Shown here: in pieces, positions 3,716 to 44,900 of the stretch
Layout of the letters: every line of letters begins with the position of its first letter
How positions within the stretch are numbered: position 1 is the stretch's first letter
Source: a virus
Lineage: Duplodnaviria > Caudoviricetes
Virus record (IMG/VR): IMGVR_UViG_3300013901_000015
Location: 11,879 to 75,878 of that record
Strand: one strand, 5' to 3'
Length of the DNA: 64,000 nucleotides
Position numbers and translations under genes: made by a program
The notes under the pieces: generated by a model
Databases searched by the model: none
What the model was told of the DNA's origin: nothing
What the model saw: only the letters and a program-made list of their open reading frames with translations

Positions 3716-4432
3716 TTACATTAAATTGATTTCTAAATGTGGTCGGGCGTAATATGTAGGTACGCCCAAGACCTGTTGAAACTTGCTCACTGCCTTCTCT
3801 GGATTGAGGTGGCGAGAGGAACCATGGATGAGAACTATCTGCTTGGCGGACTTCTCGGCTTCGCATTGCTGCAAGAACTGGATGCCATGGGCTAGGCTCA
3901 TGTGGGAGAGACGGATGCGGTCGGCTTGGCTTGCGATGGTCTTGCCTTCGTTGACAGCCTTTTCTAGGAGTCCATCCTCGTAGTTGCATTCCATGAGATA
4001 GGTACGACAACCCTTGATAATCTGATGGAGATTGTAACAATCGGTAGCAAAGAAGATTCCACCAACCTTAGGGTGATAAATGAGATAGCCAAAGTTTAAC
4101 ACATCGTGTTCAACCGCAAAAGGTGTAATCCTGAAAGAGCCGAGGCTCTTGGTTTTCTCTTTATATATAGGCTTTGCACCTTTTACCTCATAGGCAACTT
4201 CCTTATTGGAATAAACATCTATCCCTGCCTTGATGTATTCTGGGATGTGCTTGGCATGATCAGAATGAACGTGACTCACTAAGCACCCTACCACCTTGCT
4301 TGTCTTGTACCCGATGGCTCGCTTTACCTCTTTGAAAGGTACACCTGCTTCGAGCAGCAGGATTTCTCCTGAATCTGCTCGAAGGGCATACGCATTGCCA
4401 GACGATGAAGAGCCAATAATTATTAGCTTCAT
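3716..4432 (-). CDS. metallo-beta-lactamase-fold hydrolase (putative nuclease partner of RecT)
   Basis: GSSSSGNAY, SHVHSDH (HxHxDH), HDV, TDC, MECNY and LIHGS motifs; adjacent to recT. Confidence 0.85.
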   Translation of the reverse strand: MKLIIIGSSSSGNAYALRADSGEILLLEAGVPFKEVKRAIGYKTSKVVGCLVSHVHSDHAKHIPEYIKAGIDVYSNKEVAYEVKGAKPIYKEKTKSLGSFRITPFAVEHDVLNFGYLIYHPKVGGIFFATDCYNLHQIIKGCRTYLMECNYEDGLLEKAVNEGKTIASQADRIRLSHMSLAHGIQFLQQCEAEKSAKQIVLIHGSSRHLNPEKAVSKFQQVLGVPTYYARPHLEINLM

Positions 4433-11275: not shown

Positions 11276-12412
11276 TTATATCTTACCCTCTAAATTATCA
11301 AAAGCCGACTGCACATCTTTATTGAGAGTTCGGGCATACCTTGTGGTTTGTCTCAAAGTTGTATGACCAAGCACCCTTGCCACGATGTTGATGGGCATCC
11401 CCTTAGATAGAAACAATGTAGCAGCAGTGGCACGCCCCATGTGCGTATGAAGTCTATCGACTCCGACCATCTGCCCGATTACCTTTAGGTAGTCGTTATA
11501 CTTCTGATTTGAAATCTTCGGCATCTTAAAGTCGTATTTCTTTAGTAGTTCTACGGCAGGAGTGAGAAGCTGAAACACGAAATCAGTGTCTGTCTTCGTT
11601 CTTTTTGAATGATAGAACATCTTTCCGCCCATTTCCTCGCAGTTGGTGTAATCGAAAGATTGCAGGTCGGAGTAAGCCATACCAGTATAGCACTGGAACA
11701 AAAACAAATCCCTAGCTTGCTGCAAGTGTGGCGTAGCCAAGTCTAAAGCCTTGATCGCATCGAACTGTTCTTCGGTGACACAATCCACATACTGCTTTTC
11801 TCCCTTGCCAATATGGAAAGGAAGAAACTTGTAGGGATTCTGCTCAATCAATCCATCTATCACCGCATCATTGATAAATAGCTTGAGATACTTATGATAG
11901 TCATAGATGGTTGACTGAGCCTTTCCTTGCTTATGGAGGTATTCATCCATCGCGCGAATCTTAGCCACATTGCAATCAGAGAAGGCAATAATCTTTCCCC
12001 ATTCCTCCAAGAACTTGATGAAGACATCATAGCGTTTCTTGGTGTGCTCGCATACCTTGCGCTCCTTACGTCTCTTCTTGCAGTATTCCAGAAAGGTTCC
12101 GCTCATATCATCCTCTCCATTGAAAAGAGTAGGAATTACAGACAAGTCAGTGCATCCCATCTTGGTCATTTTGAGAACCACTGCCTCGCCTCTCTCTCTG
12201 AACGCATCCAACTGCTCGTTGAGTGCATCGGCATTCTTGCATTTGATAATCTTCTGTTGTTTGTCAGACCATTGTGTCGGGACAACCTTGATGCCGGTCG
12301 AGATGTACTTTCTTTCCGACTTGTAAGAGAACCTTAATTCGATAGAAACTGGCTTTTGTGCCGTTCCTCGCTTCAACCGATTGTGAATAATACTTAAATT
12401 TACTCTAGCCAT
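11276..12412 (-). CDS. int: tyrosine integrase (Bacteroidetes type)
   Basis: N-terminal arm-binding region (KYISTGIKV), SAM-like domain, FQCYTGMAYSD, HMGR, LGHT and catalytic RYA. Confidence 0.92.
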   Translation of the reverse strand: MARVNLSIIHNRLKRGTAQKPVSIELRFSYKSERKYISTGIKVVPTQWSDKQQKIIKCKNADALNEQLDAFRERGEAVVLKMTKMGCTDLSVIPTLFNGEDDMSGTFLEYCKKRRKERKVCEHTKKRYDVFIKFLEEWGKIIAFSDCNVAKIRAMDEYLHKQGKAQSTIYDYHKYLKLFINDAVIDGLIEQNPYKFLPFHIGKGEKQYVDCVTEEQFDAIKALDLATPHLQQARDLFLFQCYTGMAYSDLQSFDYTNCEEMGGKMFYHSKRTKTDTDFVFQLLTPAVELLKKYDFKMPKISNQKYNDYLKVIGQMVGVDRLHTHMGRATAATLFLSKGMPINIVARVLGHTTLRQTTRYARTLNKDVQSAFDNLEGKI

Positions 12413-26997: not shown

Positions 26998-29900
26998 ATG
27001 GGATATGACAGAATAGATTCGATGTACGATGCACTATCCAAGGATGGCGCACAGATTGGTACTAGACAACAATTCAAGAAACTCATGCTAGCGCCTGGTA
27101 AGCAGGGCTATAAGAACCGACTGGGCTTCTATAATGCGATGAAACAGGACGGTGCCCAGATTGGTAACTCATACGAGGACTTTGCTCGGGCGATGGGGCT
27201 TCATGCGGTGAAGCCTCAGCAAGCTAGAGCACAGAAACCTGTGTCTCAGCCTAGCAAGCCTATGACTACTGCAGAGAGGGCAAGGCAGATTGGTCAGGAG
27301 TATATGCAGGGAAAGGCAGGAAAGAGCAAACAGGCTAGTGCTGGCAACACTTCTAGCACCGACTATATGAAAAACTGGCAGTTGATGCACAAGCGCAATG
27401 ACCAGATGACTCCAGTCGAGCAGATGCAAGCCAACACCATGCGTTCTCGCATGCAGCAAGCACAGAAACAGGCTAGTCAACAGGAGCAGCGCAGGGCGAA
27501 CCCTATCAGTCAGAGCAGAATCACGCCGACTGCACAGAATTTCAACGAGACGATGCAACAGCTTTCGTCTTCACAAGCAAAGAGGGCTAGAGCGGTGCAG
27601 CAGCGAGAGGATGATGCCAGAAACTTGGCTCAATATGAGGTGGAGGGCAATCAATTTGCTCATAACGATGGCAAGTTTGGAACCATTGCGCCAGAGATTG
27701 ATTCTCTAGTTGCTCCTTCAATGAAGGAAGCGGACGATCTGTCTTGGACTCAGTATCAGCAGGACTTGAAGAATGCTGGCAATGATGCTTATCTGAGAAA
27801 CAAGGCTTGGAAGGACTTGCAGGACAACAGAATTAAAAACCGCCAGAACGTACTTGCAAACAACCTTAGTGCAAAGTTGCAGGAAATCTACTCTCAGAAA
27901 GGGCTGCAGGAGCACATTGTACAGAGTGCAGATAAGCTGAATATGGGCGTTGAGGAGTATGTGGATAAATATGTTACCCCTCAGATGATGCAGCGTGCTC
28001 AGAATATTCTCGGCGTGAAGAATATCGAGGAGATTTTGCCTCAGAGTGCCACGGAATACGTGGTGAGAAGACTCAGCGACTCTATCTTGGGTACTTTGTC
28101 GGCAGGACAGGATAAATCGAGAGAACAGATTGCCAGAGAGCAGGAGGCGATGGCTATTTCTGACGGATTGGAAGAAATGCCTACAGTAAAAGGTTACAAG
28201 GCAAACGAAGGCTACAAGTCTGGTGCCGGCGCACGATTTGCTTCTACGGCTGCTAACATGGCGATGGACTCCCCTATCCTCGGAATGACAGGCGGCGCAG
28301 CTAATATGTCGGTCGATTTGGGTAAGCAGGTACTGATGGGAGGTCTCGCCAAGGCAGGATTGGTGAAGATGGGTGCCAAGCTGACCGCACAGCAGTTGGC
28401 TTTCAAGGCTGCCAATATGACTATGGCGCAGAAGATTGCTTCTGGCTTGGTGGAAGGCTCGGCAAAAGGTGCGCTCAACTTGGGTGGTTACTCTAGTATT
28501 ACGTCTGCACTCGGACAGGCTTCCACTGGTAATGATACTTCTTTGTCGGCATTGGGAAAAGCAGCATTGGAAGGCTTCGAGCACGGTGCCACTACTGGTG
28601 CGATGTTCGGCGTGTCGGGTGCTATCATGGCTCCTTGGGTGTCCAAGTTCGGCATCAACGGATTGGAGACTAGCACAGGAGAGAAATGGTTGCACGGCGC
28701 ACAGAAGCTTGGTGCCACTGGTGTAGGTCTCGGCGTGGAGGCAGGAACAATGATGGTCGCAGACAATATCACTGGTGACAAGGATATTTCCGTAGGCACA
28801 TGGTTGGAAGACTTGGTGATGGTGGGCGCATTCAAGGCAGGAGAACCTAAGAATTACGCCCATATCGGTAGTGCTCTATATGGTCTTGTGCATAACACCA
28901 ACAACACCTTCCGTGTGGGAAAAGACCAAAACGGCAAATGGCGTACGGTGGACATACACATGACGAAGGACGAGCAGAACGAGTTGATGAACTCTGTTTC
29001 TGGCAAGAACCTCGTGGAAACATTCCAGAAGGTGGATAAGTCTAGCCTCAACTCAAAGACTCCATTGGATAAGAGTATCACCAAGCAAGCTTATCAAGAC
29101 TTCATGAACGACCCTAACGTATCGCAGAGCACCAAGGAGAAGGTGAATGCGGCGATGGGATTGTTCAATACAACGAGTGCCAAGAGCTACCGTAGTGTGA
29201 ACGATGTGCAGAACAAACAGATTCTGGAGTATTCGAAGAACGGTACCTTGCTCACTCGTACCTCTTATAAGAATGCAGATGAACGCCGTGCCATCCTATA
29301 CAAGCAGAAGTTATATAGAGACAACGAGGAAATGAGGTCTTTAGCAGGTTACTCTAAATTGAAAGACTTACAACCGACTGACGAGAACGGAGAGGTTACA
29401 CGGCTCGCCTTTGCGTTTCTTACAGACAAGGGGTATAATCCAAACGAGACTGTTACGGAGGCTAACAATGCTCGATTAATTGCAGGGTTGCGAGACAAGA
29501 ACAGCGACCTGTACAAGGAATGGGAGAAGTACGTGGATAGATTCGGTTCCCTCGGTATGCTGATTTCCGATACAAGAACGTGGAAGAATGGCTTGTTGGA
29601 GGTATTCATCGGAGACAGAGAAATAAGCCTTGACACCATCATGCGCAAAGACCCAATGAAGCGTACGGATGAAGAGAATAAGATTTTCTATCAAGTAAAG
29701 GATGCTTTAGAGAGCGAACTATTCCCTAACGGTAAACCTCATGCCGATCAGAGCGAAACACAGGGACAGAGTGTTGCCGAGGACAACAACCTTGGAACCG
29801 ACCAGCCTAACGGAGAGGCGGTGAAGCAGGAGTTGAACGGACTGAGACAGGCTGAGACTGAAATGGACGTGCTGATGCGAGACAATGATGTGTTCAGCCA

Positions 29901-32900
29901 GAACTTCAAGAAGCTACAGAGCCAGGGTCTTACCAATCCTCAGATTTATGATTGGATGGTTCAGAACGGACTGACACAGGAACAGTTGGAACCATTTGCC
30001 CATTATATCAATGCGAACGCTAGAGTGCAGGGTATGCAGGAGGCTACCAAGCAGAAGATTGAGGAAGTGGTGAGCGGTGTCGTGCAGGATTGGTCTTACC
30101 ATGGAGAGCTGAACGGTCAGAAGATGAACGGCGAACAGGTGGTTTATGTGCAGGACAGCGAAGGCAGAACCTTGATTGTTGGCTCTGGAGACGTGGCATT
30201 TGACTCTACCACTGGGCGTGCGAAGGAAGACGTGGGCGATCTGCTTATCTGCTTCGACCCTAACACCAAGGAAATGGTGTACTTGAAGAAGGATGATGTT
30301 ACCTTTATGCAGACTCAGAATCCCGATGATTTCGGCAATGAGTATCGCCAGAGATTGCAGATGATTAACTCTCAGCCTTACAATGAGGCTGCTCAGGAAC
30401 AGGCGATGCAGGATGCAGGAAAGTCTGAAAATCAGAATCAATCGGAATCAATCGGAATCAATCAGAATCAAAATTCGGAATCAAACGGAAGCGAGAAAGC
30501 ACCACAAGTTGATACCACTTCGCCAGAAGCTAGTACCATAACGGCGAAAAATAATACCACAAAAGAGGGCTTAGCACCACAAGAGCAGCCTCAGCAGACC
30601 AGAAAGTTTGCAGATGGCACCGATGTGCCTATGACCAAGGACAGCAAGGGAAGACCTACGCCCGACTATGGAGCGATGAAGCCAGAACAGGCGGCTGAGA
30701 TTCTTTCGCAGGACTTCGGAGAGAACGCCGAGAAGGTGGTTGATGGGCAGATTAAGAAAGCCGAGAAGGCTTTGAAGGATGCCGAGAAGATGAAAGTGGA
30801 CTACACCGCCGAGCCTAACGACATCTTGGAACAGGAGCAAGTGAAGGCTCAGACCGTGGAAGCTGCAAAGAAACAGCTTGAACAGGCGCAGAACATCAAG
30901 AAGGCGATGACTGCCAAGGCTGTGGCGGAGACCGTTGGCAAACCTACCGATGAAAAGGTGGAGGGTGCTAACGAGGCTAGCAGCGAGGTAGCCAAGAAGT
31001 TCCAGAATGCGCCGAGATTGCAAGGCAACCACGTAAGCAAGCGTCTGCCAAACGGCGATAAGATTAGCGGACACTATGAGATTGTTCCTGCCGAAAGCTT
31101 GACTCCTTCGCACGATGTAATGAATGACTATAAGAAGTCAGAGGGCTTCCCTGTGGATGCAGAGGGAAGAACTATAAATGATAGAGACTATGAGCACGAC
31201 AAGGCGGCGCAACAGACCACCGACCAGATGGCTCAGAAGTACAGCGGACAGGCGATTTCTCAGGTGCCTACGGTATCTGACGAGGGTATCGTTTACGATG
31301 GCAACGGAAGAACCATGGCAGGACAGAAGGCTGCGAAGAACGGTACAGATGCTGAATACATCGAGGACTTGATGGACAATGCCCAGAACTATGGCTTCAC
31401 CAAGGAGCAGATTGAGCAGAGTGGAATCGAGCATCCACGTCTTGTGATGGTAACTGATGAAAGATTGCCTTATGATACGGCTACCTTCTCCATGTTCAAC
31501 AGAAACGAGAAGAAGACGCAGAGCAACACCGAGCAAGCTGTGGCTAAGGCTAAGACCTTGACTAGCGACGAGGTGGGTGCCATCGTTGCCGACATTGAGG
31601 GAAATGGTAGCTTGGATGCTTTCTTTAACAATTCCAAGGCAATAAATGACTTGGTGAAGACGTTAGTAAGTAAAGGTGTCATCGGACAGAACGAGGTGGC
31701 TGGCTTCATGGATGGTCCAGACAGACTGTCGGCGCAGGGCAAGGAGTATGTGAAGAACCTCTTGCTTGGCTCTGTGTTCAAGCCAGAGACTATCCGTATG
31801 CTTGGAGTGGATAGCAAGATCAAGAACGCTGCCATCAATGGCATTCGTGCCATCATGGATAACTTGAAGCTGGGCGACTACTCTCTGCGTGACGAGATAG
31901 ACCAAGCCATACAGTTGCTCTACGAGGCTGGAAGAAACAAGATGAGCGTGGATGACTTGCTGAAACAGAGCAGTGCCTTCGAGGAGAACGCTAGGGATAG
32001 ATTCCCGATGATTGCACAGGCTATGGCTCAGGCTCTGGAGGATAAGCCTACGACTTTCAGAGAGTTGATGAGCGAGTACAACAACATCGCCAAGAACTAC
32101 AACACGAACGAGGGCACCTTGGGATTCTATGATAAGTTAACGCCTGAGCAGGTTGTGGAGGAGTTCCTCAACGCTAGCAAGGCTATCAAGAACAATAACA
32201 TCAAGCTATATGGAAAAGAATCAGAAACTGAAAGAAGCAATGATGCTGCTGGCAATGAAGAACCTTCAAATGAAGCAGGAGGTGCAGCTGGCACAGAAGG
32301 AAATGGGAATGCTGAAACAGAACCAGAAATAAAGGTTAAGAAAGCATTGAAGCGCATCGCTACCGAGATTACCAAGCAGACAGGTATCGAGGTGGTGACG
32401 GATGAGCAAAAAGCCAAGAAAGCACTTGATGAAACAGAAAACATCAAGGTACAGCGTGCATCCGCAGGTAGCACAGTTAGTGGTATGGAAAAAATGCCAA
32501 AGGGTTTGCAAATGAATCCTAGCGTATTGACCGACCAGATACTTAACTATCATGGCGATCATATCGCAAAGCTACTTGGTGAAGTACCAGAGGATAGTAC
32601 TGTTAAGTATTTCTCTGCACACAATGGAGTTTGGTATTTCTACCGAGTAGATCATGACCGCAATATCATCCTTGATGGTGCCATTTCTGCCAACAAAGAC
32701 AATTATCGTGAATACGAACAAAAGATAAAAGAGTATTATGGAATTGACGGCGGCGCAGAAGCTATTTATAATTATGTGCAAGAAGCAGGGTTTGACACAG
32801 GAGCAAACCGCAATTTGCATGACTATTTTCTCGAAGGAGGAAATACGAGACATTCTGCAATGGGTGAGCGACCTAATGAATCGCAAGGGGAAGCCAGAGT

Positions 32901-35900
32901 TGAAGACAACAGAACTTCTGGACGAACTTTACGACAGGGCTCTAGCGAAGAACAAAGCGGAGCGATTAAGGAGTTCCGTTCTGCCAACGGTGAGGTCTAT
33001 GGATTCACGGTAGATGGCAAGATTTATCTTGACACCAAGAAGATGAAGCCTGAGACCCCTCTGCATGAGTACACCCATTTGTGGACTGAGGCTTTGAGGA
33101 ACGGCAACCCTACAGAGTGGGAGAACGTGAAGAGTCTCTTCGATGAGGTTGAAGGACTGAAAGAGGAGGTTCAGAAGCTGTACCCTGAGCTAAAGGGCGA
33201 TAACCTTTACGAGGAGATGATTACCACATTCTCTGGTCGTGAGGGTGCCAAGAAGCTTGAAAAGGTTGTGCGTGGTCTCGCTAAAGAGGATGGAAAGACC
33301 GTAGAGGAGAGAGCCAAGGCTACAGGCTTTATCACCAAGGTGAAGGAAGCTTTGCAGAAGTACTGGAAGGGTGTGGCTGACATGCTTCATATCCACTTCA
33401 CTTCTGCCGAGGAGGTTGCCGACAAGGTTCTTGCTGATTGGGCTAGCGGCTTCAACCCAAATAAAGCTTTCGATGTAAATGACAGAGATGGCGATTATAC
33501 GAAGAATAACGTTGAATACATTGTTAAAAATACAAAACTCCCATTTGGCAAAAAATACGGAGAAGAACTATCTCAAGAAGAAGTCAAGTCGTTATTCTAT
33601 GGGGATAATGATTACTCAAAGAAATACGGCAAACTATTCGATAGAGTTTACGATGTTGCTCGAAAACTAGGTATAAAAATTAGCTTCAAAATACCACCAG
33701 AAACTTATAGTGCTTATGGTCTAGCTGATTTGGATAACGTATATCTAAATCCTATACTTCTTGCAAGAGGAGAGCATAAGGTTTTCCCAAACAAGAAGTA
33801 TAGCCTTTACGTTAAAGAAGATACGCTTCCACATGCAATGTTGCATGAGTTAATACATTCTGTTACAGCCTACGCTTTGGAAAGATATGAAAGAGACAAG
33901 GATAGTATGCCTAAAGAACTAAGGGCAGCTGCGGAGTCTTTGATAGATTTGTATGAAGCTACGAGAAAGGCAACTCTGGATTACGTTAATGAATATGGAA
34001 GAGAGAATGAACAAGAATTTATCGCTGAATTATCTAATCCTAATTTTTGTAAGCTTCTAAAGAAGACAAATGTTTGGACTAGAGTGAAAGATGCGATAAA
34101 GCAATTCTTCTTCCCTCTGATTTCTTCCGAAAAGAATGTGTTGGATAAGTCGTGGAAGGAGACAAACTCTTATAAAGAGCTTTCTTCTTTACTTGATGAC
34201 TTTTTAGAGCATAGTGACAAAGGTCTATTTGAAGAAGAGATTGGTGTGCAGAACGGTGAAATCAAGGGCAAGGAAGAAGCTAAGGAAGAACCTGTTCCTA
34301 TCATGCCGAAGCCTGTAGATCCTAGCAACCCTATAGAAAAGGCGGCTGAGGACTACAAGAAGGAGCATCCTTTGAGCGAGGATGAAATATTGAACACTAC
34401 GGCGTTCGATGGTTTGCCTGAAGACCAGAAGCAGTATTGCATTGATGCGGCTTTGGACTATCTGAATGGCGAGGACACTTCGGCTATTTCCGAGGCTTAC
34501 TATAGAAACGCCTACGAGAAACGTTCTAGCCGTCCTGCCGAGACAGCGAAGGTTGCCAAGGCAGACAGCGAGACTGTCAAGGCTGGACAGGCTGAGGTTT
34601 CTGCCGACCCAATGGAAGGAATCAAGAATGCCGCAGAGGGATTCGAGCAGGAGAAGGCTGAGAGGGAAAGAAAGCAGAAGGAGGCTACCCAGAAGGTTCT
34701 GAACGTTATCAAGGCTTCGAACGAAAAGGCGAAGACCAGAAAGCAGTTGGAGGCAGAGAAGAATGCAGCGGACAATGAGTTTGAGGCATTCATGAAGGAA
34801 CTACGCAAGAAACAGAGCGGTCAGCTTAACTCTGGCTTCATCGACCAGAACTTGATTGAGGCGGCACCAAAGATGTTCTCTCTTGCAGCAAAGTGTGCCT
34901 ACACTCGTATCAAACTGGGCATGTATGATGCCAAGGAGGTGGTGAAGGATTTGCGCAACCGCTTCAAGGATGCTTTCGATGGATTCGACAAGCGAGACGT
35001 GGAAACCTTCTACTCTGAAATCATGAACCAGAAATGGCGTGATGGTGATAAGAGAATGAGCCTCAACGAGTGGGCAGAGCATTACAGAAAGCTTTCTCCT
35101 GAATATAAGGAGAAACTGGAAGGCGACTCGAAGGATGCCGAGGAAAGGAAGATGAGCGAAAAGAAGTTCATTGACCGTGTGAACATTCGACTTGGATTCG
35201 GACAGAAGATAAACGGCATCGTTGAATTGAGAAAGATGGCTGAGGAATGCGGCTTGAAGGATGTGAAGGACACAGACCTTCAGGAATTGGCAGAGACTGC
35301 CATTGTGCAGAGAGCTAGAGGTATCGCTTCGTCTGCATCCACAAATGATGCCAAGAAGTTTGAACTCATCAAGAAGCTTTACGAGAATCAGCCTAGCCTC
35401 AACCAACGTGATTCTGAGCGAGTGATGAAGCAGCAGTATTCTACCCCTGCCCCATACGCTTTCTTGGCAGACATGTATGTGAAGGGAGGCGGCAAGGAGG
35501 TGAAGAGCGCATTGGAGCCTAGCGCAGGAAACGGTATGCTTACCATCGGCTTGCCTATGGACGTGGTGCATGTGAACGACATTGACGCTCAACGTTTGGC
35601 GAACCTGAGAAGACAGGGCTTCAAGAACGTGACGAGTCAAGACGGTACTCAGCCTTTCGCCGACAAGGACGTGGACGTGGTGGTAACTAACCCACCATTC
35701 GGTAGTGCAACGCCAAAGGAGTATGACGGCTACAAGATTTCCTCTCTGGAGGGTCAGATGGCTATCAATGCCTTGGAGAGCATGAAGGACGATGGTCGTG
35801 CTGCCATCATCATCGGCGGCAAGACGGAATACGCCAAGAACGGAAGTCTGAACCCAAAGGATAAGGCTTTCCTTGGTTATCTCTATAGCCACTATAATGT

Positions 35901-38900
35901 GGAGGACGTGATAAATGTGGATGGCAGTCTCTACGCAAAGCAGGGAACGACCTACCCTACACGTATTATTTTAATAAACGGAAGACGCAAGTTCGACCCA
36001 GAAAACAAGGTGTACCCACCAGTGGAGAAGAACGCTAGAGCAGAATCCGTGAAAGATTATGACGAACTTTATAAAAGAATAAACGATGACATACTACGTA
36101 GCAAAGACAAATCCGTGGATATTCACGGAGAAGAAAAGCGAAAAGGTGACAATGCAGGTGGTAGAACAAACGTTTCTGATTCTACTAAAGAGAATGGTGG
36201 ACGAGTCGGACGAATGGGAGACGAAGGAGTTTCTGACAGAACTCCTGCAAATCCTAAACAGACTGAACTGGACACAAGCACCCGACCTGTGGAGCAACGA
36301 GAAGATGCCAACGGAGGAACAACTGAGAGTGCTAGCGATGGAAATAGTAACCCAGACACAAGAGGGGGACAAACTTCTGTACCACAATCTGAACGAACCG
36401 ATGGAAGTAGCGGACGAGGAGACAACTCTATCTCTGGAGGAAGCAACACTAGCGCAACTGATAACGGAACAGATGGACGAGAGCGTGGAGTACGACTACA
36501 GTCCTCAGATGTTCAATCAGTAAGCAACACTCCTACCCAACCAAAGGAAGAGAAGAAACAAACTTTGACTACAGAGAAGGTTGCATATACCCCTAGCAGT
36601 CATTCCATGTCGCTCGGTGCCGTGGTACCAGCTAGACAAAAAGAGGCACTTGAAACGGTATTGAATAAGCTTGGCGATGCCGACCAATACTTGGTAGATA
36701 ACCTTGGCTATAATGACAAGGAAGATTTGTACGCACATCTCGCCGCCGAGCAAGTGGATGCTGTTGCCTTGGGATTAAAACAGATGGAGAAAGGCAATGG
36801 CTTCATTATTGGAGACCAGACTGGTATAGGTAAGGGAAGACAAGCTGCTGCCATCATTCGTTATGCGGTTAAGCAAGGTAGGATTCCAGTATCGTTCACC
36901 ATCAAGCCTAACCTTTTCTCTGACACCTATCGTGACTTGACAGACATTGGTAGTCCTGAATTGCGTCCATTTATCCTAGCCTCCAGCAAGGATGGCAACA
37001 TTAAGGAGAACTACGATGAAGAGGTGAAAGGACTTGACGGAAGGGTTACCAAGGTAAGAAAACAGCGCATTATATATAATGTGCCAAGCACTACAGAAAC
37101 ACAACGAGTATTAAAATATATCGCAGAAAACGGAAAATTGCCAGAGGGATATGATTATATCCTCACCACTTATTCGCAAATCAGAACGGGTTTGCAGGAA
37201 TATAAGGGTGGCAAGTGGAAAGATAAGAAAAAGATTAATGCAGCTGACCGCAACGGACAGTTGAAGCGTGATGCTATTGAAAAACTCGCAGAGAACAGTA
37301 TCTTTATACTTGACGAAAGTCATGATGCCGCAGGTGAAGGAAGCGGAAGTGCATTCATTCAGAAGGTTTTGCCAAAGGCTAAGGGCGTAACATTCCTTAG
37401 TGCTACCTATGCAAAAACTCCTGATGCGATGAAACTGTATGCCTTGAAGACAGACTTGGGCAGTAAGAGCAAGGACGAAAAGGACGAAAAGGATGATGCT
37501 TCTTGGAAAATTCTGAATGCCATCAAGAAAGGTGGTACCGTGTTCCAAGAGATTATGAGCCAAGCCTTGACACGAAGCGGTCAGATGATTCGCCGTGAGC
37601 GAGATATGACTGGCGTAACCATCGACTGGAATCCACTTACCGAGGACGAAACAGAGATTCAAGCACAACGAGACAAGTTTGACAATATCTTTGGTATATT
37701 CAACGACATATTGAACTTCCAACGTACTTACGTGGATGCCAAGTTGGGGGAAATGAGCGATGATGCCGCATTAATCCAAGGTAGCGTGGACCACACACCT
37801 GGAACAAAGGATATGGGTATCGGCAACGTTACATTTGCAAGCAAAGCTTACAATGTAGTACAGCAAGCACTCTTCTCCATCAAAGCTGAGAAGGTGGCAG
37901 ACTATGCCATCGAAGCCATCAAGAACGGAGAGAAACCTGTTATCGCAGTAAACAACACCATGGAGGGTATGACAGACGAGTACCCGATGGGAGAAGTGAT
38001 GGATATGCCAGACCTTAATACTACCCTTATGAAAGGTTTGGAAGGTATATTGAGATACACCGAGAAGAATGAATATGGAGACCGAGACAATAAGGTATTG
38101 AGACTTGAGGAACTTGGCGAAGAAGCAGTGGCACGATATAACGAAATCAAGGAAAAGATAGCATCTGCCACAAGCGGACTGAGCATCAGCCCTATTGATG
38201 TAATCAAACACAGGTTGGAGCAAGCTGGCTATCGTGTGGGAGAGCTGACTGGTAGAAACACCGAGTTCGTATATAATGAGGATGGAAAAGTGGTAAGACA
38301 AAAGCGCACCGATACCAACAAGAATGCCTTGGCAGACCGATTCAACAATGGTGATCTTGACGTGCTTATCTTGAACCGTTCTGCCTCAACTGGTATTTCT
38401 CTTCATGCCTCTACTAAGTTTAAAGACCAAAGACAGCGCACCATGATATTCGCTCAGATGCAAGGGAATATCAACGAGGAGGTGCAAATGCGTGGTCGTA
38501 TCGACCGCACAGGACAGGTAAGACGAGGAAAGTACGTTTACTTAGTTTCATCCATCCCAGCCGAACAACGACTGATGATGATGTTTAAAAATAAGCTGAA
38601 ATCATTGGATGCCAACACTACTTCTTCGCAGAAGAGTAAATTTAACGAGGTAGATGTGCAAGACTTCACCAACAAGTATGGTGACGAGATTGTTTTGCAG
38701 TATATGGCACAACACCCTGAGTATTACAATAAATTAGCAGACCCTCTTGGTTGGGGGTTCATGGAGTATGCCCAAGATGGTTTGTCGCTCACAGAGTTGA
38801 AAGAGAAAACAAAATCAACCATTACTTCACCTGCATACGAAGTAATGAAAAGACTTACCTTGCTACCAGTAAAGGAGCAGGAAGTGGTATTGAAGGATAT

Positions 38901-41900
38901 ATCTGACACCTATGCTCAAAAGATTAAGCAGTTGGATGACATGGGCATGAACGACCTTGAAATAACTGACATGCCTTTGGAGACTAAGACCTTAAAGCGT
39001 GAAGTATGGAAGGAAGGTTCTGACCCTGGCGGCGATAATGCCTTTGCTGATAACACTTATATCGAAACCGTTGAAATGAATGTATTGAAGAAGCCTATGA
39101 AGGCTGACGAGGTACAGTCAGCGCAGAAGAAGATGCTTGACGGAAAGGATTGGGAAACATGGAGAAGCGATAAGATTGCCGAAATCAAGAAGGCGCAACA
39201 AGCCAAGATTGAGGAAACAAAGGCAAAGATGGCTGAGCAGATGGAAAAGAAAGCTGCCAAGACAGAAGAGAACACTCGCAAGGCTCTGGAGAAGCAAAAC
39301 GAAAAACTCCAAAAGAGAATAGATAAGGGTGAAGAACTTAAACCGGGAGAGCATGTCTTAACGGAGGATGAAATCGACAATAGAATTAGTGCTGTTGTGG
39401 ATGATGTTAAGCGTAAAATGTTGGATAAGCAGTCGGAAGCTATTGCTGGAGTAAACACTAAATACGAAATGTTTATCGGTCCACTATATGTTTTTGACCC
39501 TGACAAGACAGTTAGCGTTCCTACCGATTGGTATCTGGAAGACGCTAGTCCTTCTACTTATCCTGAGTTTGGTAGAGTCATCGGATTCAAGTATGACAAG
39601 AACTATAATCTTGGCTCATCTTCCATAGTGATTGCTACAACTGATTCTAGAAAACGTGTAGAAATTCCTCTGACAAGACCAAAGGCACTTAGTAGAATAG
39701 AAACGGACACCGAAAGATTCGCCAAGGAGTGTAATGTTATCACAATGAACTCTTGGGATAGACTGATTCCAAAGAAAGACCGCACTACTGGGCGCATTAT
39801 CACAGGAAATATGTTGGAAGCTTTGGCTGACAACAAGAATATCGGTCACTTGGTTTCTTACACTACCGATGATGGGAAAGTGAAGCAAGGCATCTTGGTA
39901 CCTGATAGCGTGAGCACTGAGGAGATTACAGGTAACATGCCTATTGCCAAGGCTTACAACTGGTTTACCAAGAAAGAAGGTGGAACTGAATTAAAGTCCA
40001 CTGACGGAAATTTAAGATTAGCCAAAAACTTTGGCTCCATGTACACCCTCTATGTGCCAGCTAGCAGAAAAGAAGGTGGTAAGTATTATCTGAACAAAGA
40101 GTTACTCGACTTAGTACACGGTCATAACTTCCAGTCGAAAGGAAAGAACTTCTGGGCTACATTCGATGCAGAAAAATTGCACGATGTGCTTCATATCTTG
40201 AATGGTATGGAAGTTCAGGTGAAGACCCCTAAGGACTTCGAGGAAAGCAGAACCCACTTCCGTGAGGATCGAGGCATTCAGTATTCTAAAACAGATGCAA
40301 AAGATGTTAAGAATAGTAGAATCATTCCCGAAGATGTGGATAAAAGTGTATCTTCGCAGATTGAAAAAACTTATGACTCTGCCATCGAAGAGGCTTATAA
40401 ATATGTCAGTGAGAAAGACAAGACTAGACTTCATTCTGATGTTGAGCGAGACTTGCGTGAGTTCTCAAAGATGCGCAGAGAAGATATTGTTAATGATATA
40501 AAACAAAGAGAATATGATTTTAGGGAGTGGGAACGTAGCGGAGCAACGCCTGATAAGGGAGGCTTTGTCGGATATAGATATGCTCGGTTTAAAGCTGCCG
40601 AAGCAGCAGCCAAACGAGAGCTGGACTATAGAGACGCTAGAGCAAAGCATCTCTCAGATACTTACGGATTGCAAGAAGGAAGAGAAAACAATCTTGATGA
40701 GGTGGCTCGAATTTATCGAGAACTTCAAGAAGAGAAAGATAAGGGACGAGATGCGTTGTTCTCAAAAGCACTGGATATTGTAAAGCGACTAGGCACTGAG
40801 TTTGGTGGCATAAATGATGCCCCTGCAGAAAACTATGCTGGTGTATCTACCACTCAACGAGAGGTGGCTTTGTTTATTGATACGCTTGCAAGAACTAGTA
40901 CGAGAAGAGAAGCCACTGCTAAGACTTTGCTTCACGAAATGATACACCAAGCTACGGTTGGCGCCATAAACCTTGTGCGTAGAGGAAATGCAGAAGGCTT
41001 ACTTACACCTAAGCAGATTGATGCCGTAAATACCATTTTGGATATTTATGACAAGGCTGTGGCTGATGGTAGAATTCATTATCAAGAAGGTGTCAAAAGC
41101 GACTATGGAGGCAAGAATCCTTATGAGTTTGCTGCTCAAATGGCAGATACTGTTCAGCGCAAAAAGCTTGACTTTACATTTGGACAGAAAGTAATGAATG
41201 CCTTTAAGGAACTGTGGAATAAAGGCGATAGGTCTTGGAAGGATGCCTTCAAAGATGCTTGGGGAAAACTCTTAGAGACATCTGATAAGAAAAAGATGGA
41301 TAAGGCAATCAGCGACATCATGGAGGATTTCAATGAGACTATTGATGATATTTCTATGAGAGATATTGAGTCTAGAGGAGGAACCTTCGCTGACAAACTT
41401 TCTAACGATTCTCCTGTTTCTTCCCACATTGCCCAACTGTCAGAAAAGGTAGGTGACAAGGTGAACATGGTTCATTCTGCCGATGAGGTAACCAACAAGC
41501 AAGCAAAGGAAGCCATCGAGGAAGGCAAGCATATCACTGGCTGGTATGACGAGAAGACTGGCGAGGTACATCTTTACATGCCTAATATCCACGACCGGTA
41601 CACTGCCGAGAAGACTATCTGGCATGAGGTTGTGGGACACAAGGGAATGAGAGAGTTGTTTGGTGAAGACAGATTCAACAGGTTCCTGCGTGATGTGTGG
41701 TATGACTTGGATAAGCCTGAGAACGCCGACTTGAAGAAGTTGGTGATGGAGGAAATGAAGTACAATCCGTTCAATGTGTATAATGCCATTGAGGAGGGTA
41801 TCGCCCGACTTGCCGAGGAAGGAAGAGGCGAGGCTGGTTTCTGGAGAAACTTAAAAAATAAGGTTTCTGACTTCTTGCACGAAATCGGTTATCGCATGGC

Positions 41901-44900
41901 TCCTAACACCAAGGATGTGAAGTATCTGCTCTGGTTGAGCAAGAACTTGCAGAAGAATCCTAACGATCCTTACTGGAAGATGAGAGCCGAGGCGGTGAAA
42001 TACCGTCTCGACCATGAGGATGTGCCTGACGTTATCGCCAAGGATGGTATGTTTCAGAGTAATGATGGCAAGGCTCGGGACTTGGGCGACTTGCCTAAGG
42101 CTGAGTACCAAGAGGCAACTGACGGAAAGATTCATTTCCGCACTACCCCATCGGCTGGCACGGCTCTTGATAGATACCATCGTTCGCTTGATGAGCACGG
42201 CTATATGTTCACTGAGAGTTATATGGACAATATGCTTTCGCTTAAGAACTTGATGACGGCGATTGCGCCTGGCAAGAAGATTGAGGATATTGCCTCTTCG
42301 GAGAATCCTTATATCTTGCAGAACACGATGCAGGGAGCGATGAGCGATGCGGCAAGAATGTTTGAGCGCAACGTGATGAAGCCTCTCGACAAGGCGATGG
42401 CAGGGGTGCTTGATGCCTTCGAGGGCAAGAATGACGATGAGAAGATTCGTAACTTCAACCTCTACATGATTACCAAGCATGGTTTGGAGCGCAACCGTAT
42501 CTTGTATGTGCGTGATGCCTTGAAGGACATGCGCATGGACGAGAAAAAGAAGAAGCTTGCCGATACCATTGAGAATGATTGGGGCAACGAGAAGGCGACA
42601 CTTGACGAGAAGTTGGAGCGTGGCGACATCGACTTGAAGGAGTATTACAAGCAGATGGATGACTTCATCCGTACTTACGTGGATGAAACGAATAAGTTTG
42701 ATGCCGGCGAACACGACTATTCGGGCATTCACGCCATTCAGAAGGTGGAGAAAAGTTCCGACCCTTACGATGATGCGGAGGCTATACAGAGCGTGATGGA
42801 CTCTGAGGGCAGAATGGAGGACATCAAGAAGGGCGCAGTGAAGGACTATTGGGATAAGGTGAAGACTGCAACCCAGTATTCCATCGACTGTGACTATAGG
42901 AACGGACTGATAAGCAGGGAGCTGTATGGTCATGTTTCGGAGATGTTCAACTGGTATGTGCCTCTGAGAAAGTATGACGAGGCTACGGCGGAAGATACAT
43001 ACGGATATATCACCGAGAAGGGCGACCCTAAATCTTACATCGGCAAGACGATCATGAGGGCAAGGGGTCACAAGTATCTGAGTGAAACGAACATCTTGGC
43101 TCAGATTGGAGCGATGGGCAACCGTGCCATCAAGAACGGCGGACAGAATGCCATCAAACAGGCGTTCGCTAGATTCATCAGAAACAACTCGAACAATAAT
43201 CTTGTGACGGAAACTAGCGTTTGGTATGTAAGCGACCCTATCACTCAGACCACCGTGGAGCGTTACCCAGATATTCCTGACGATGCGACTGCTGACGAAA
43301 TCAGCCAGATTGTTAGCGACTTCAATATGGAAATGAAGGACTTGGCATCGAAGGGATTGGCTACGAAGGTGTATCGCAGAGGAAGAATCGGGTATAAGTT
43401 CCAGAGAGCGGAGAACAAATCTCAGCATATCGTTGATGTGATGATTGCAGGAAAGAAGCACTCCTTCATCGTGAACGGAAACCCTAGGGCTGCACAGGCT
43501 CTGAATGGATTGCTGGAGCATAAGAATGAGACTGGCATCGGTAAGATTGCTGGCAAGATTTCTAGATTTATGGCTCAGACCTGTACGTCTTACAACCCAG
43601 AGTTTGTGATGAGAAACATGATTCGTGACTTCGAGTTTGCTTCTTCTAACCTCTTGGCTAAGGAAGGTGCAAGATATACTGGTATCTTTGAGAAGTACTA
43701 TGCGAAGGTTGGTATCATAGAGGGTATCAGAAATTCTAAGCTGAGCGACTTCAAAGACACAGGCGGTTTCGGCTTGTTTGTCAAGTATCGTAACGGAACG
43801 CTTGACACTTCCGACAAGATTCAGAGATATTTCAAGGAGTTCATGGAGAACGGCGGCGAAACAGGTTGGGTACAGATTAAGAGCATGAAGGAATGGACGG
43901 AAGAGTATAAGCGTGACATCAAGGCAGAGCGCAACAAAGCTGTCAAGGTAGGAAAAGGATTCTACAATGCCATCTTTAAGAACTTGGAAAATGTGAACGA
44001 GATTGCCGAGAACATGGCTCGTTTCGCTACCTATTGTGCCAGCAGAGACAGCAATCGTTCGGTAGTACGTAGTGCTTACGATGCGAAAGAGGTGTCAACC
44101 AACTTCAACCGACATGGTTCTGGTAGTGAAATCAAGAGCTTCAAGAATGGTGAGATGGGATGGTTCGAAGAAAAACGCAAGCAAACCTATCGCTACACCT
44201 CTGCTTGGTTCAGAAATACCTCTATGTTCTTCAACGCAGGTATTCAGAGTACCAACTTGCTTGTAAAGAACTTGAAGAACAATACAGCTGGCACCTTGGG
44301 ATATATTGCAAGCGGTCCTATGATTAGCGGTATGGCTATCGCTCTGCTCAACAACTTCCTTATCGCCAACGAGGACGAGAAAGACCGCAAGGGAGTGAAA
44401 GACCCATACGGCGAGTTGCCAGATTACATCAGAAGAAACAACTTATGTGTATATGTGGGCGGCGGCGAGTTTGTTACCATTCCGCTTGCCATCGAGGAAA
44501 GAGCCTTCTATGGACTTGGCGACTTGGTGGCAGGACTTACATTCTCGCCTAACATTAGCGGACAGAAGAACCCTTTCTTGGATGCAGTGGGCTGCATGTC
44601 GCAATTAGTTCCTGTGGCTGATTACCTTGGCAATGCTTCATTTGGTAAGCATCCTGTTCAAGAGACGGTGAAGGCTGTGATGCCTTCGGCTACCTCGCCA
44701 TTTATCGAATGGGCTTACAACAGCGACTGGAAAGGTGCTCCTATCGAACGAGACAACAAGTTTGACGAGAATCAGCCAGCTTGGATGCTCGCTTACAAGG
44801 GTACTCCTGACGTGTTGTTGGACTTAAACAAGAAGGTTAATGCGTGGACTAACGGTGTAGCCCCAGGTAATGAGGATATGCTTGGAAACAGCTTCTTGGA

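Follow-up and report, generated by a model that had tools for sequence, protein, structure and literature searches.

We analysed a 64,000-nt window (positions 11,879 to 75,878) of the Caudoviricetes record IMGVR_UViG_3300013901_000015, a 75,878-bp IMG/VR virus genome that is complete by CheckV, and found that the giant polyvalent-protein gene of this phage almost certainly contains, wholly inside its own coding sequence, a second protein-coding gene read in the +1 frame. This open reading frame (ORF), here called ORF3, lies between the methyltransferase (MTase) and helicase regions of the giant gene, and its product represents an undescribed family of ~145-aa acidic alpha/beta proteins under purifying selection. 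Two shorter ORFs, ORF1 and ORF2, share its strand and frame and occupy other linkers of the giant gene (Table 1). From comparative sequence evidence, we consider it likely that the interdomain linkers of this giant protein are dual-coding. A preliminary description of the window had proposed that all three ORFs are real genes nested in the linkers, and this stands for ORF3, on the strength of frame-specific selection, an invariant ATG, a confidently modelled fold and a free-standing homologue, stands with moderate support for ORF2, and can be kept only tentatively for ORF1. Their positions, lengths, strand and frame were confirmed by an ORF listing, as was their placement at domain borders: ORF1 starts ~770 nt downstream of the ddrB-ParB match, ORF2 ends 50 nt upstream of the HEYTH motif of the first zincin, and ORF3 fills the gap between the end of the MTase and the start of the Sno-type helicase (~36565).

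The evidence that lifts these ORFs above the background of fortuitous, or shadow, reading frames is comparative; it is very strong in the case of ORF3, of moderate strength for ORF2 and weaker still for ORF1. For ORF3, we used 80 IMG/VR loci that extend across the MTase-helicase junction with 57-100% identity. The flanking domains of these loci align well, and the main-frame linker between them is divergent and interrupted by indels, retaining a hydrophilic G/S/R/D/N/E composition in all lineages. Every correctly framed locus has zero stops in the +1 frame, against 11-20 in the +2 frame, and the +1 frame stays open despite the indels and a protein identity of only ~25-33% between lineages. When main-frame codons were resampled synonymously, the probability of an open +1 frame, P(open), was 0.003-0.17 in 17 representatives taken one by one, and four distant loci gave 0.013-0.098. 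The start ATG is found in 81 of 81 sequences, which means that the overlapping main-frame Asp codon is always GAT. The +1 translations resemble an ordinary protein family: they begin with M-[TI]-Y-Y and share invariant aromatic and hydrophobic positions (W11, L54, L60, W69, P75, T91, G94 and L97), and in every pair compared over identical nucleotides the +1 protein is better conserved than the main reading (for example, 0.69 vs 0.53 and 0.70 vs 0.47).

Is this conservation specific to the +1 frame? Among 52 gap-identical homologues, the share of variable sites at main-frame codon position 3 is 0.64-0.69 in the flanks, far over positions 1 and 2. Within the overlap the greatest share falls on main position 1, which is +1 position 3 (0.45), the next is 0.26, and the smallest falls on main position 3, which is +1 position 2 (0.16); in a sliding scan of 32200-40900 the pattern flips at 36040-36520 only. 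The ratio of nonsynonymous to synonymous rates (dN/dS), estimated with overlap-aware site classes in the style of OLGenie, agrees with this picture. In the ORF3 overlap it is 0.17 (confidence interval, CI, 0.11-0.25) for the +1 frame and 1.51 (0.91-3.13) for the main frame; in the flanks it is 0.05-0.09 for the main frame, with 0.05 in the helicase, and 0.86-1.28 for the +1 frame. Within the window's own lineage, the +1 value is 0.35 (0.26-0.50). The rate at sites that are synonymous in the main frame and nonsynonymous in the +1 frame (dSN) is 10-fold lower in the overlap than in the flanks (0.02 vs 0.22-0.28), and sites of the opposite kind, nonsynonymous in the main frame and synonymous in the +1 frame, evolve at a near-neutral rate. 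The comparison of the two frames, which the preliminary description had suggested as a check, thus speaks for the +1 frame in ORF3; it does so in ORF1 as well, and in ORF2 for one pair of sequences out of two, as described below.

The main-frame segment over ORF3 is, by these comparisons, selected only to stay open and to serve as a hydrophilic, flexible tether between MTase and helicase. In the nested copies it has no stops, where 11-13 would be expected given the +1 protein (P < 2e-4 each), and all indels in the overlap keep both frames. One locus, L053, carries within 3875-4420, inside the dual-coding region, a tandem insertion of five 21-nt units, each of which gives GGNVQKS when read in the main frame and EETYRNQ when read in the +1 frame, both frames staying open; its relative L067 has one extra 21-nt unit. 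We also noted that a stretch of ~300 nt upstream of ORF3, in the MTase core at 35740-36040, has an unusually low main position 3 diversity of 0.13-0.25 vs ~0.3 elsewhere, which could reflect a recent sweep, recombination or an overlapping signal such as an element for ORF3 expression.

As modelled by AlphaFold2 from a 17-sequence alignment (mean predicted local distance difference test, pLDDT, 83.3; predicted template modelling score, pTM, 0.79), the ORF3 product has an N-terminal beta hairpin, ~7 helices and a disordered acidic tail. Proteins of the family have isoelectric points (pI) of 4.1-4.3 and net charges of about -16 to -23, and the grand average of hydropathy of ORF3 is -0.55. A profile search of 1.8e9 protein representatives gave 23 matches, nearly all of 54-153 aa, whose genes had been called on short contigs carrying a truncated giant ORF; the full-length members inspected start at the same Met (MxYY). 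Genes of this family are nested in the same +1 frame of the distant giant genes L256, L257, L259, L260 and L278, and in L256-L260 the MTase shares 62-64% identity with that of the window, compared with only ~25-30% for the nested protein. The predicted fold appears to have no known relative: Foldseek searches of the PDB and BFVD gave E > 1, the Atlas search TM <= 0.40, and the wide VIA-align search a best Z of 3.6, while an ESM-Atlas feature search, with low recognition and fungal hypothetical clusters only, was uninformative. Pfam and PHROGs searches assigned the nested proteins to no family (one PHROG match at E = 0.006 was disregarded), and phages and plasmids gave no tblastn match to proteins of the ORF3 family.

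The family also occurs outside the nested arrangement. In L251 the main frame stops within the overlap and the +1 ORF continues, so that the two genes are overlapped, and in L253 the gene is free-standing, with an unrelated gene ending 16 nt upstream. The former main frame of L253 contains 12 stops, the number expected without selection, and the closest relative of this free-standing copy (77% identity) is nested. The next ORF in L251 (650-1066) encodes an unrelated 138-aa protein with the motif IRLANHNA in place of the helicase, which may reflect either another module order or a chimeric short assembly. In the cultured phage BS-TP4 (PQ571277.1), gp3, a giant gene of 5391 aa, holds an unannotated 115-aa +1 ORF right after the MTase (L276:3408-3755). 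It is the longest +1 run in that locus (P(open) = 0.05), and its N-terminus, KYYVAK..., resembles that of ORF3, with a weak profile match (hhalign P = 8e-4, Prob 25%); homology to ORF3 is tentatively suggested by position.

Other +1 ORFs in the same gene serve as controls. Twelve of them (63-101 codons) have +1 dN/dS values of 0.50-1.95 together with normal main-frame constraint, and in nearly every homologue 11 of these frames are broken. The exception, at 31178-31372, is open in 56 of 65 homologues with a +1 dN/dS of 1.95; here composition keeps a frame open in the absence of selection, which makes it useful as a negative control. A scan of the remaining aligned parts of the giant gene revealed no further frame flip. 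The three ORFs described here differ from the other +1 shadows, and their frames are not broken in true homologues; broken frames in close homologues and a match to the shadow-ORF background were among the outcomes that the preliminary description had named as telling against it.

How might the nested genes be translated? In Bacteroidota, start sites are selected largely without Shine-Dalgarno pairing, through A-rich, unstructured sites. We calculated the minimum free energy (MFE) of the region from -30 to +30 around the 463 internal ATGs of the giant gene, which averages -11.2 kcal/mol (sd 3.9); the starts of ORF1, ORF2 and ORF3 have values of -2.9, -4.6 and -1.2 kcal/mol. That of ORF3 is the weakest structure of all 463, with 83% A+T upstream, and that of ORF1 is in the top 1%. 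Ranked by weakness of structure, the three fall in the top 0.2-4%, and their upstream A and A+T content places them in the 97-100th percentile; on both measures they are like the phage's true gene starts. No copy of the Bacteroidota -7 promoter motif TAnnTTTG occurs on the + strand in the 200 nt preceding any of the three starts, and for this reason we favour a model in which ribosomes would initiate internally on the one long mRNA, independently of Shine-Dalgarno pairing, to translate the nested genes. They would do so at conserved ATGs in unusually unstructured, A-rich sites, as is usual in Bacteroidota. Each nested gene may have been born by overprinting in otherwise free linker sequence, or may have been captured there.

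ORF2 is probably a real nested gene, although we hold this with less assurance than for ORF3. Most homologues lack the ORF2 module. Where it occurs, namely in the window, L241/L264 and L242, the linker is accompanied by a compact main-frame domain, and both are absent in L244-L250, in which the zincin follows directly; the domain and the linker therefore form one cassette inserted before the zincin in some phages. The preliminary description had supposed that the nested genes travel with their neighbouring domains during module shuffling, and this is partly borne out, by the ORF2 cassette and by ORF3, which accompanies the MTase in all lineages found, the one free-standing copy excepted. In four divergent variants (L241, L264, L242 and L254), a +1 ORF of 69-91 aa starts from the same ATG, with F10, I26, S32, E35 and the motif S-x-[QE]-E-[ILY]-x-x-[IVA]-x-x-[WF] in common and P(open) of 0.09-0.38 per variant. 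Between the window and its closest variant, L254, the differences at main positions 1, 2 and 3 number 12, 2 and 6 in ORF2 vs 24, 24 and 82 in the downstream zincin, and the +1 dN/dS is 0.09 (0-0.23). The main frame over ORF2 has 0 stops vs 7.8 expected (P < 2e-4). An AlphaFold2 model of the product is a four-helix protein (pLDDT 85, pTM 0.70), for which Foldseek against the PDB, the only fold search made, found no match at E <= 0.001. In L254, ORF2 lies between a stop and the start of the next gene and not within a continuous ORF; a breakpoint at ~32701-32712 stands immediately before the ORF2 start region.

For ORF1, we judge the chances of a real nested gene, from the sequence comparisons at hand, to be about even. 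A +1 ORF of 37-41 aa with the same ATG and a core of KEAMM..A[ML]KNL is present in ~74 homologues. Its openness is uninformative, P(open) being 0.6-1.0 among homologues. The +1 dN/dS is 0.14-0.16 (CI upper bounds 0.31-0.39), and dSN is 0.07 vs 0.25-0.49 in controls, that is, 3-6x slower.

The giant gene as a whole encodes Pfam matches to a ddrB-like ParB domain, MTS, AAA_34 with Helicase_C_4 (Strawberry-notch type) and LPD38, besides three HExxH motifs, and its main frame is open across all homologous loci. The MTase has a conserved C-terminal helix ending in ...DDILR at ~36097, so that its last codons overlap the start of ORF3. The giant protein is presumably a DarB/DdrB-like, virion-packaged antirestriction protein. 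Its modules are exchanged in and out among related phages; the segments 33640-34240, which includes the second zincin motif HELIH at 33844-33858, and 40360-40600 lack an aligned counterpart in most homologues. The nearest cultured relative found is BS-TP4, a temperate phage of Bacteroides salyersiae (PMC12694917), whose MTase is 52% identical. The window contains 64 copies of TAnnTTTG vs 46.6 +/- 6.5 expected, and because this enrichment and the relatedness to BS-TP4 both fit, we infer that the host belongs to the Bacteroidota. GenBank phages and plasmids gave no blastn match to the region, and a PHROGs search of the neighbouring genes gave no informative context.

Table 1. Features of the giant gene and its nested ORFs, in positions of the window.
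Feature	Position	Strand	Remarks
Giant polyvalent-protein gene, host ('main') frame	26998..45378	+	single 18,381-nt ORF, 6126 aa
ddrB-like ParB domain, upstream of ORF1	31051..31437	+	Pfam PF18763, E = 1.2e-9
ORF1, possible nested gene, 40-aa basic K/E/Q/M-rich peptide	32210..32332	+	+1 frame
Compact main-frame domain (...NYHGDH...WYFYRVD...)	32527..32737	+	one insertion cassette with the ORF2 linker
ORF2, probable nested gene, 91-aa basic four-helix protein (predicted)	32738..33013	+	+1 frame
First zincin motif HEYTH (HExxH), just 3' of ORF2	33064..33078	+	motif position
N6-adenine MTase domain, upstream neighbour of ORF3	35200..36097	+	Pfam MTS; NPPF motif 35689-35700
ORF3 initiation region, A/T-rich, unstructured	36041..36085	+	near-invariant at main-frame synonymous sites across lineages
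ORF3, nested gene (almost certain), 145-aa acidic (pI 4.2) alpha/beta protein	36086..36523	+	+1 frame
Main-frame MTase-helicase linker, G/S/R/D/N/E/T-rich, overlaps ORF3	36098..36564	+	divergent, in-frame indels
Strawberry-notch-type SF2 helicase, downstream neighbour of ORF3	36565..38970	+	AAA_34 ~36787-37638; Helicase_C_4 ~38233-38970

Could all three ORFs be shadows of the main frame? A +1 stop requires NTA followed by R or NTG followed by A, that is, a hydrophobic main-frame residue. Linkers lack such residues, and +1 stops could therefore not arise there; the helical look of the ORFs would then come from purine-rich codons, and no +1 product would be made. Among the 294 +1 open runs in the giant gene, ORF3 (146 codons) is the longest, ORF2 the 4th and ORF1 the 14th, and synonymous resampling of the window's sequence by itself gives P(open) values of 0.07, 0.31 and 1.0. 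A null model based on shuffled codon order, which gave P ~0, was dropped as unfair because it destroys dicodon context. The unselected run at 31178-31372 likewise illustrates how a frame can stay open through composition. This explanation, however, cannot account for the 10-fold fall in dSN beside a near-neutral rate at the opposite class of sites, and it leaves unexplained the invariant ATG, the confident fold, the free-standing copy with its decayed main frame and the extreme character of the starts. We regard it as highly improbable for the three ORFs together, and as plausible for ORF1 alone, for which it comes close to an even proposition. Slightly more probable than a common shadow origin, though still very unlikely, is that ribosomes enter the +1 ORFs by programmed +1 frameshifting and use them as alternative C-termini, so that truncated isoforms of the giant protein arise in which the N-terminal modules carry a small extra domain. 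Frameshift-derived isoforms are common in phage structural genes, all three ORFs share one strand and one frame, and the missing -7 motif upstream would also be in keeping with frameshifting. There is, however, almost no room for a shift site: a +1 stop precedes the ATG by one codon in ORF3 of most lineages (TAA at 36080-36082 in the window) and by three codons in ORF2. Moreover, no slippery motif is conserved upstream (TAT AAA AGA, TAT AAA CGA and TAT ACA AGA are all seen), and the ATG is invariant, the free-standing homologue and the inspected full-length members sharing the same start Met.

Two further explanations leave the +1 frame of ORF3 without a product or the giant protein without its unity. 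The synonymous constraint might stem from a non-coding element over the linker, such as an RNA structure or a packaging or regulatory site, and the low main-synonymous diversity at 35740-36040 indicates that non-protein constraint, or recent exchange, may act nearby. Against this, the constraint is periodic and frame-specific, with main-nonsynonymous sites fast and main-synonymous sites slow, it matches the boundaries of ORF3, the surroundings of the start are the least structured in the gene, and the amino-acid pattern keeps hydrophobic and aromatic positions; of the four explanations, we give this one the least credence. Scarcely more credible is that the giant ORF is not one protein at all, that the main frame stops and restarts at the linkers, and that the +1 ORFs are ordinary small intergenic genes over which the open main frame is incidental. 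A main-frame linker dN/dS of ~1.5, with no constraint at the level of residues, would agree with this, as would the interruption of the main frame beside a nested-type gene in L251 and L254. It is contradicted by the lack of main-frame stops in the nested ORF3 copies when set beside the 12 stops of the free-standing one, by indels that keep both frames, the five-unit repeat of L053 included, and by the hydrophilic linker of every lineage.

Several points weigh against our reading that the linkers contain nested genes. In the window alone, the lengths of the ORFs fit a composition-driven background and go only weakly beyond chance. The dN/dS estimator is biased mildly downward (controls typically give 0.5-0.85), and its CIs ignore phylogenetic non-independence. 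L251, L253 and L254 are each a single short metagenome contig. A search of sequencing runs listed no RNA run that contains the locus. ORF2 has few homologues, its AlphaFold2 alignment comprising only five sequences, and between L264 and L266, in which the flanks are near-identical while both ORF2 frames evolve fast, neither the +1 value of 0.63 (0.35-1.15) nor the main value of 0.72 is significant. ORF1 is a low-complexity peptide of 40 aa, and its test draws on ~15 informative site-equivalents. Finally, no match in Pfam, PHROGs, PDB, BFVD or Atlas suggests a function.

What might the nested products do? The ORF3 product may work with the MTase-helicase dyad, as an assembly or packaging helper or a regulator, or may be a separate acidic anti-defence factor, and the ORF2 product may work with the compact domain with which it is co-shuffled. 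We propose such partnerships between nested products and adjacent modules because embedded Rz1 works with Rz, and, the argument being one of analogy, we put their chance at somewhat under even. Among such partnerships would be the role envisaged in the preliminary description, in which each product, as a chaperone, inhibitor or antitoxin, would hold its neighbouring domain inactive until ejection. More speculative still, and in our view rather unlikely, is the general idea that the linkers of giant polyvalent ejection proteins systematically provide protected coding space for folded +1 partners, which would be initiated independently of Shine-Dalgarno pairing, coupled stoichiometrically and genetically to the neighbouring domain, and shuffled with it as cassettes. 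Such partners could be anti-defence factors, or could act as chaperones or inhibitors on the MTase-helicase, on the zincin or on the compact domain. If this were true, a whole layer of phage counter-defence genes would be invisible to present annotation.

Nested genes are textbook matter for tiny phages and for Rz/Rz1. Overlapping genes as such are known; what is novel here is that folded, constrained genes lie within linkers of a giant polyvalent protein that are themselves neutral, together with a new protein family. The usual picture of overprinting is thereby reversed, in that order and constraint belong to the nested protein and the host frame serves as a neutral tether, and the embedded, overlapped and free-standing copies provide natural controls. 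Because two proteins are encoded by one stretch of DNA, the small ones escape standard annotation; the one deposited record examined, that of the cultured relative BS-TP4, has no annotation for the nested ORF. The phage described here, a 76-kb Bacteroides-type phage, belongs to a group that is prevalent in the human and animal gut and includes >100 IMG/VR contigs. The tie between the new family and a DarB-like MTase-helicase dyad makes it a candidate for a missing component of phage antirestriction, and the system should be well suited to the study both of sequence sharing by two proteins and of internal initiation without Shine-Dalgarno pairing in Bacteroidota.

Polyvalent proteins of phages and conjugative elements, including the MTase-SF2 helicase dyad whose archetype is P1 DarB, were surveyed by Iyer et al. 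(2017, PMC5512222); that survey covers the domains of the main polypeptide, and a search of its text found no mention of overlapping or nested genes. The giant gene belongs to this class, since it carries conflict domains (ddrB-ParB and zincins), an LPD domain and the dyad itself, an adenine MTase fused to a Strawberry-notch-type SWI2/SNF2 helicase. Ocr and ArdA are small acidic anti-restriction mimics of DNA. The ORF3 proteins are likewise small, strongly acidic and tied to an antirestriction module, which we take as a lead only, since we detected no sequence similarity and, with Foldseek against the PDB and BFVD and the wide VIA-align search, no convincing fold match, and since the ORF3 model forms a mixed alpha/beta globule and not the elongated surface of a DNA mimic.

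The genes of phiX174 are the classic example of nesting. In overprinted viral genes (Pavesi 2021, PMC8227390; Sabath et al. 2012, PMC3494269), as here, one stretch of DNA yields two proteins, one of the partners is disordered, and the nested protein has a narrow taxonomic range, no detectable homologues and no known fold. The novel protein, however, is usually the disordered one, whereas in the present case the nested protein appears to be folded and constrained and the host frame disordered and unconstrained; moreover, the setting is a large dsDNA phage with no obvious pressure on genome size. The closest architectural parallel in our comparison is provided by the lambda Rz/Rz1 spanins, whose genes occur in embedded, overlapped and separated forms (Kongari et al. 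2018, PMC6139136). In both systems a small gene, missed by gene callers, is fully embedded in the +1 frame on the same strand of a larger phage gene, and the ORF3 family shows the same range of forms, being embedded in the window and at many other loci, overlapped in L251 and separated in L253. The functional analogy drawn above is founded on the physical partnership of the two spanin products. The nested products are nevertheless not spanins: they have no lipobox Cys, signal sequence or N-terminal transmembrane domain, ORF3 is acidic and soluble, and there is no lysis cassette around them. The host gene also differs, being an 18-kb multidomain gene in which the overlap falls in a disordered linker and the host frame is free of residue-level constraint, and a single giant gene of this kind may carry up to three nested genes.

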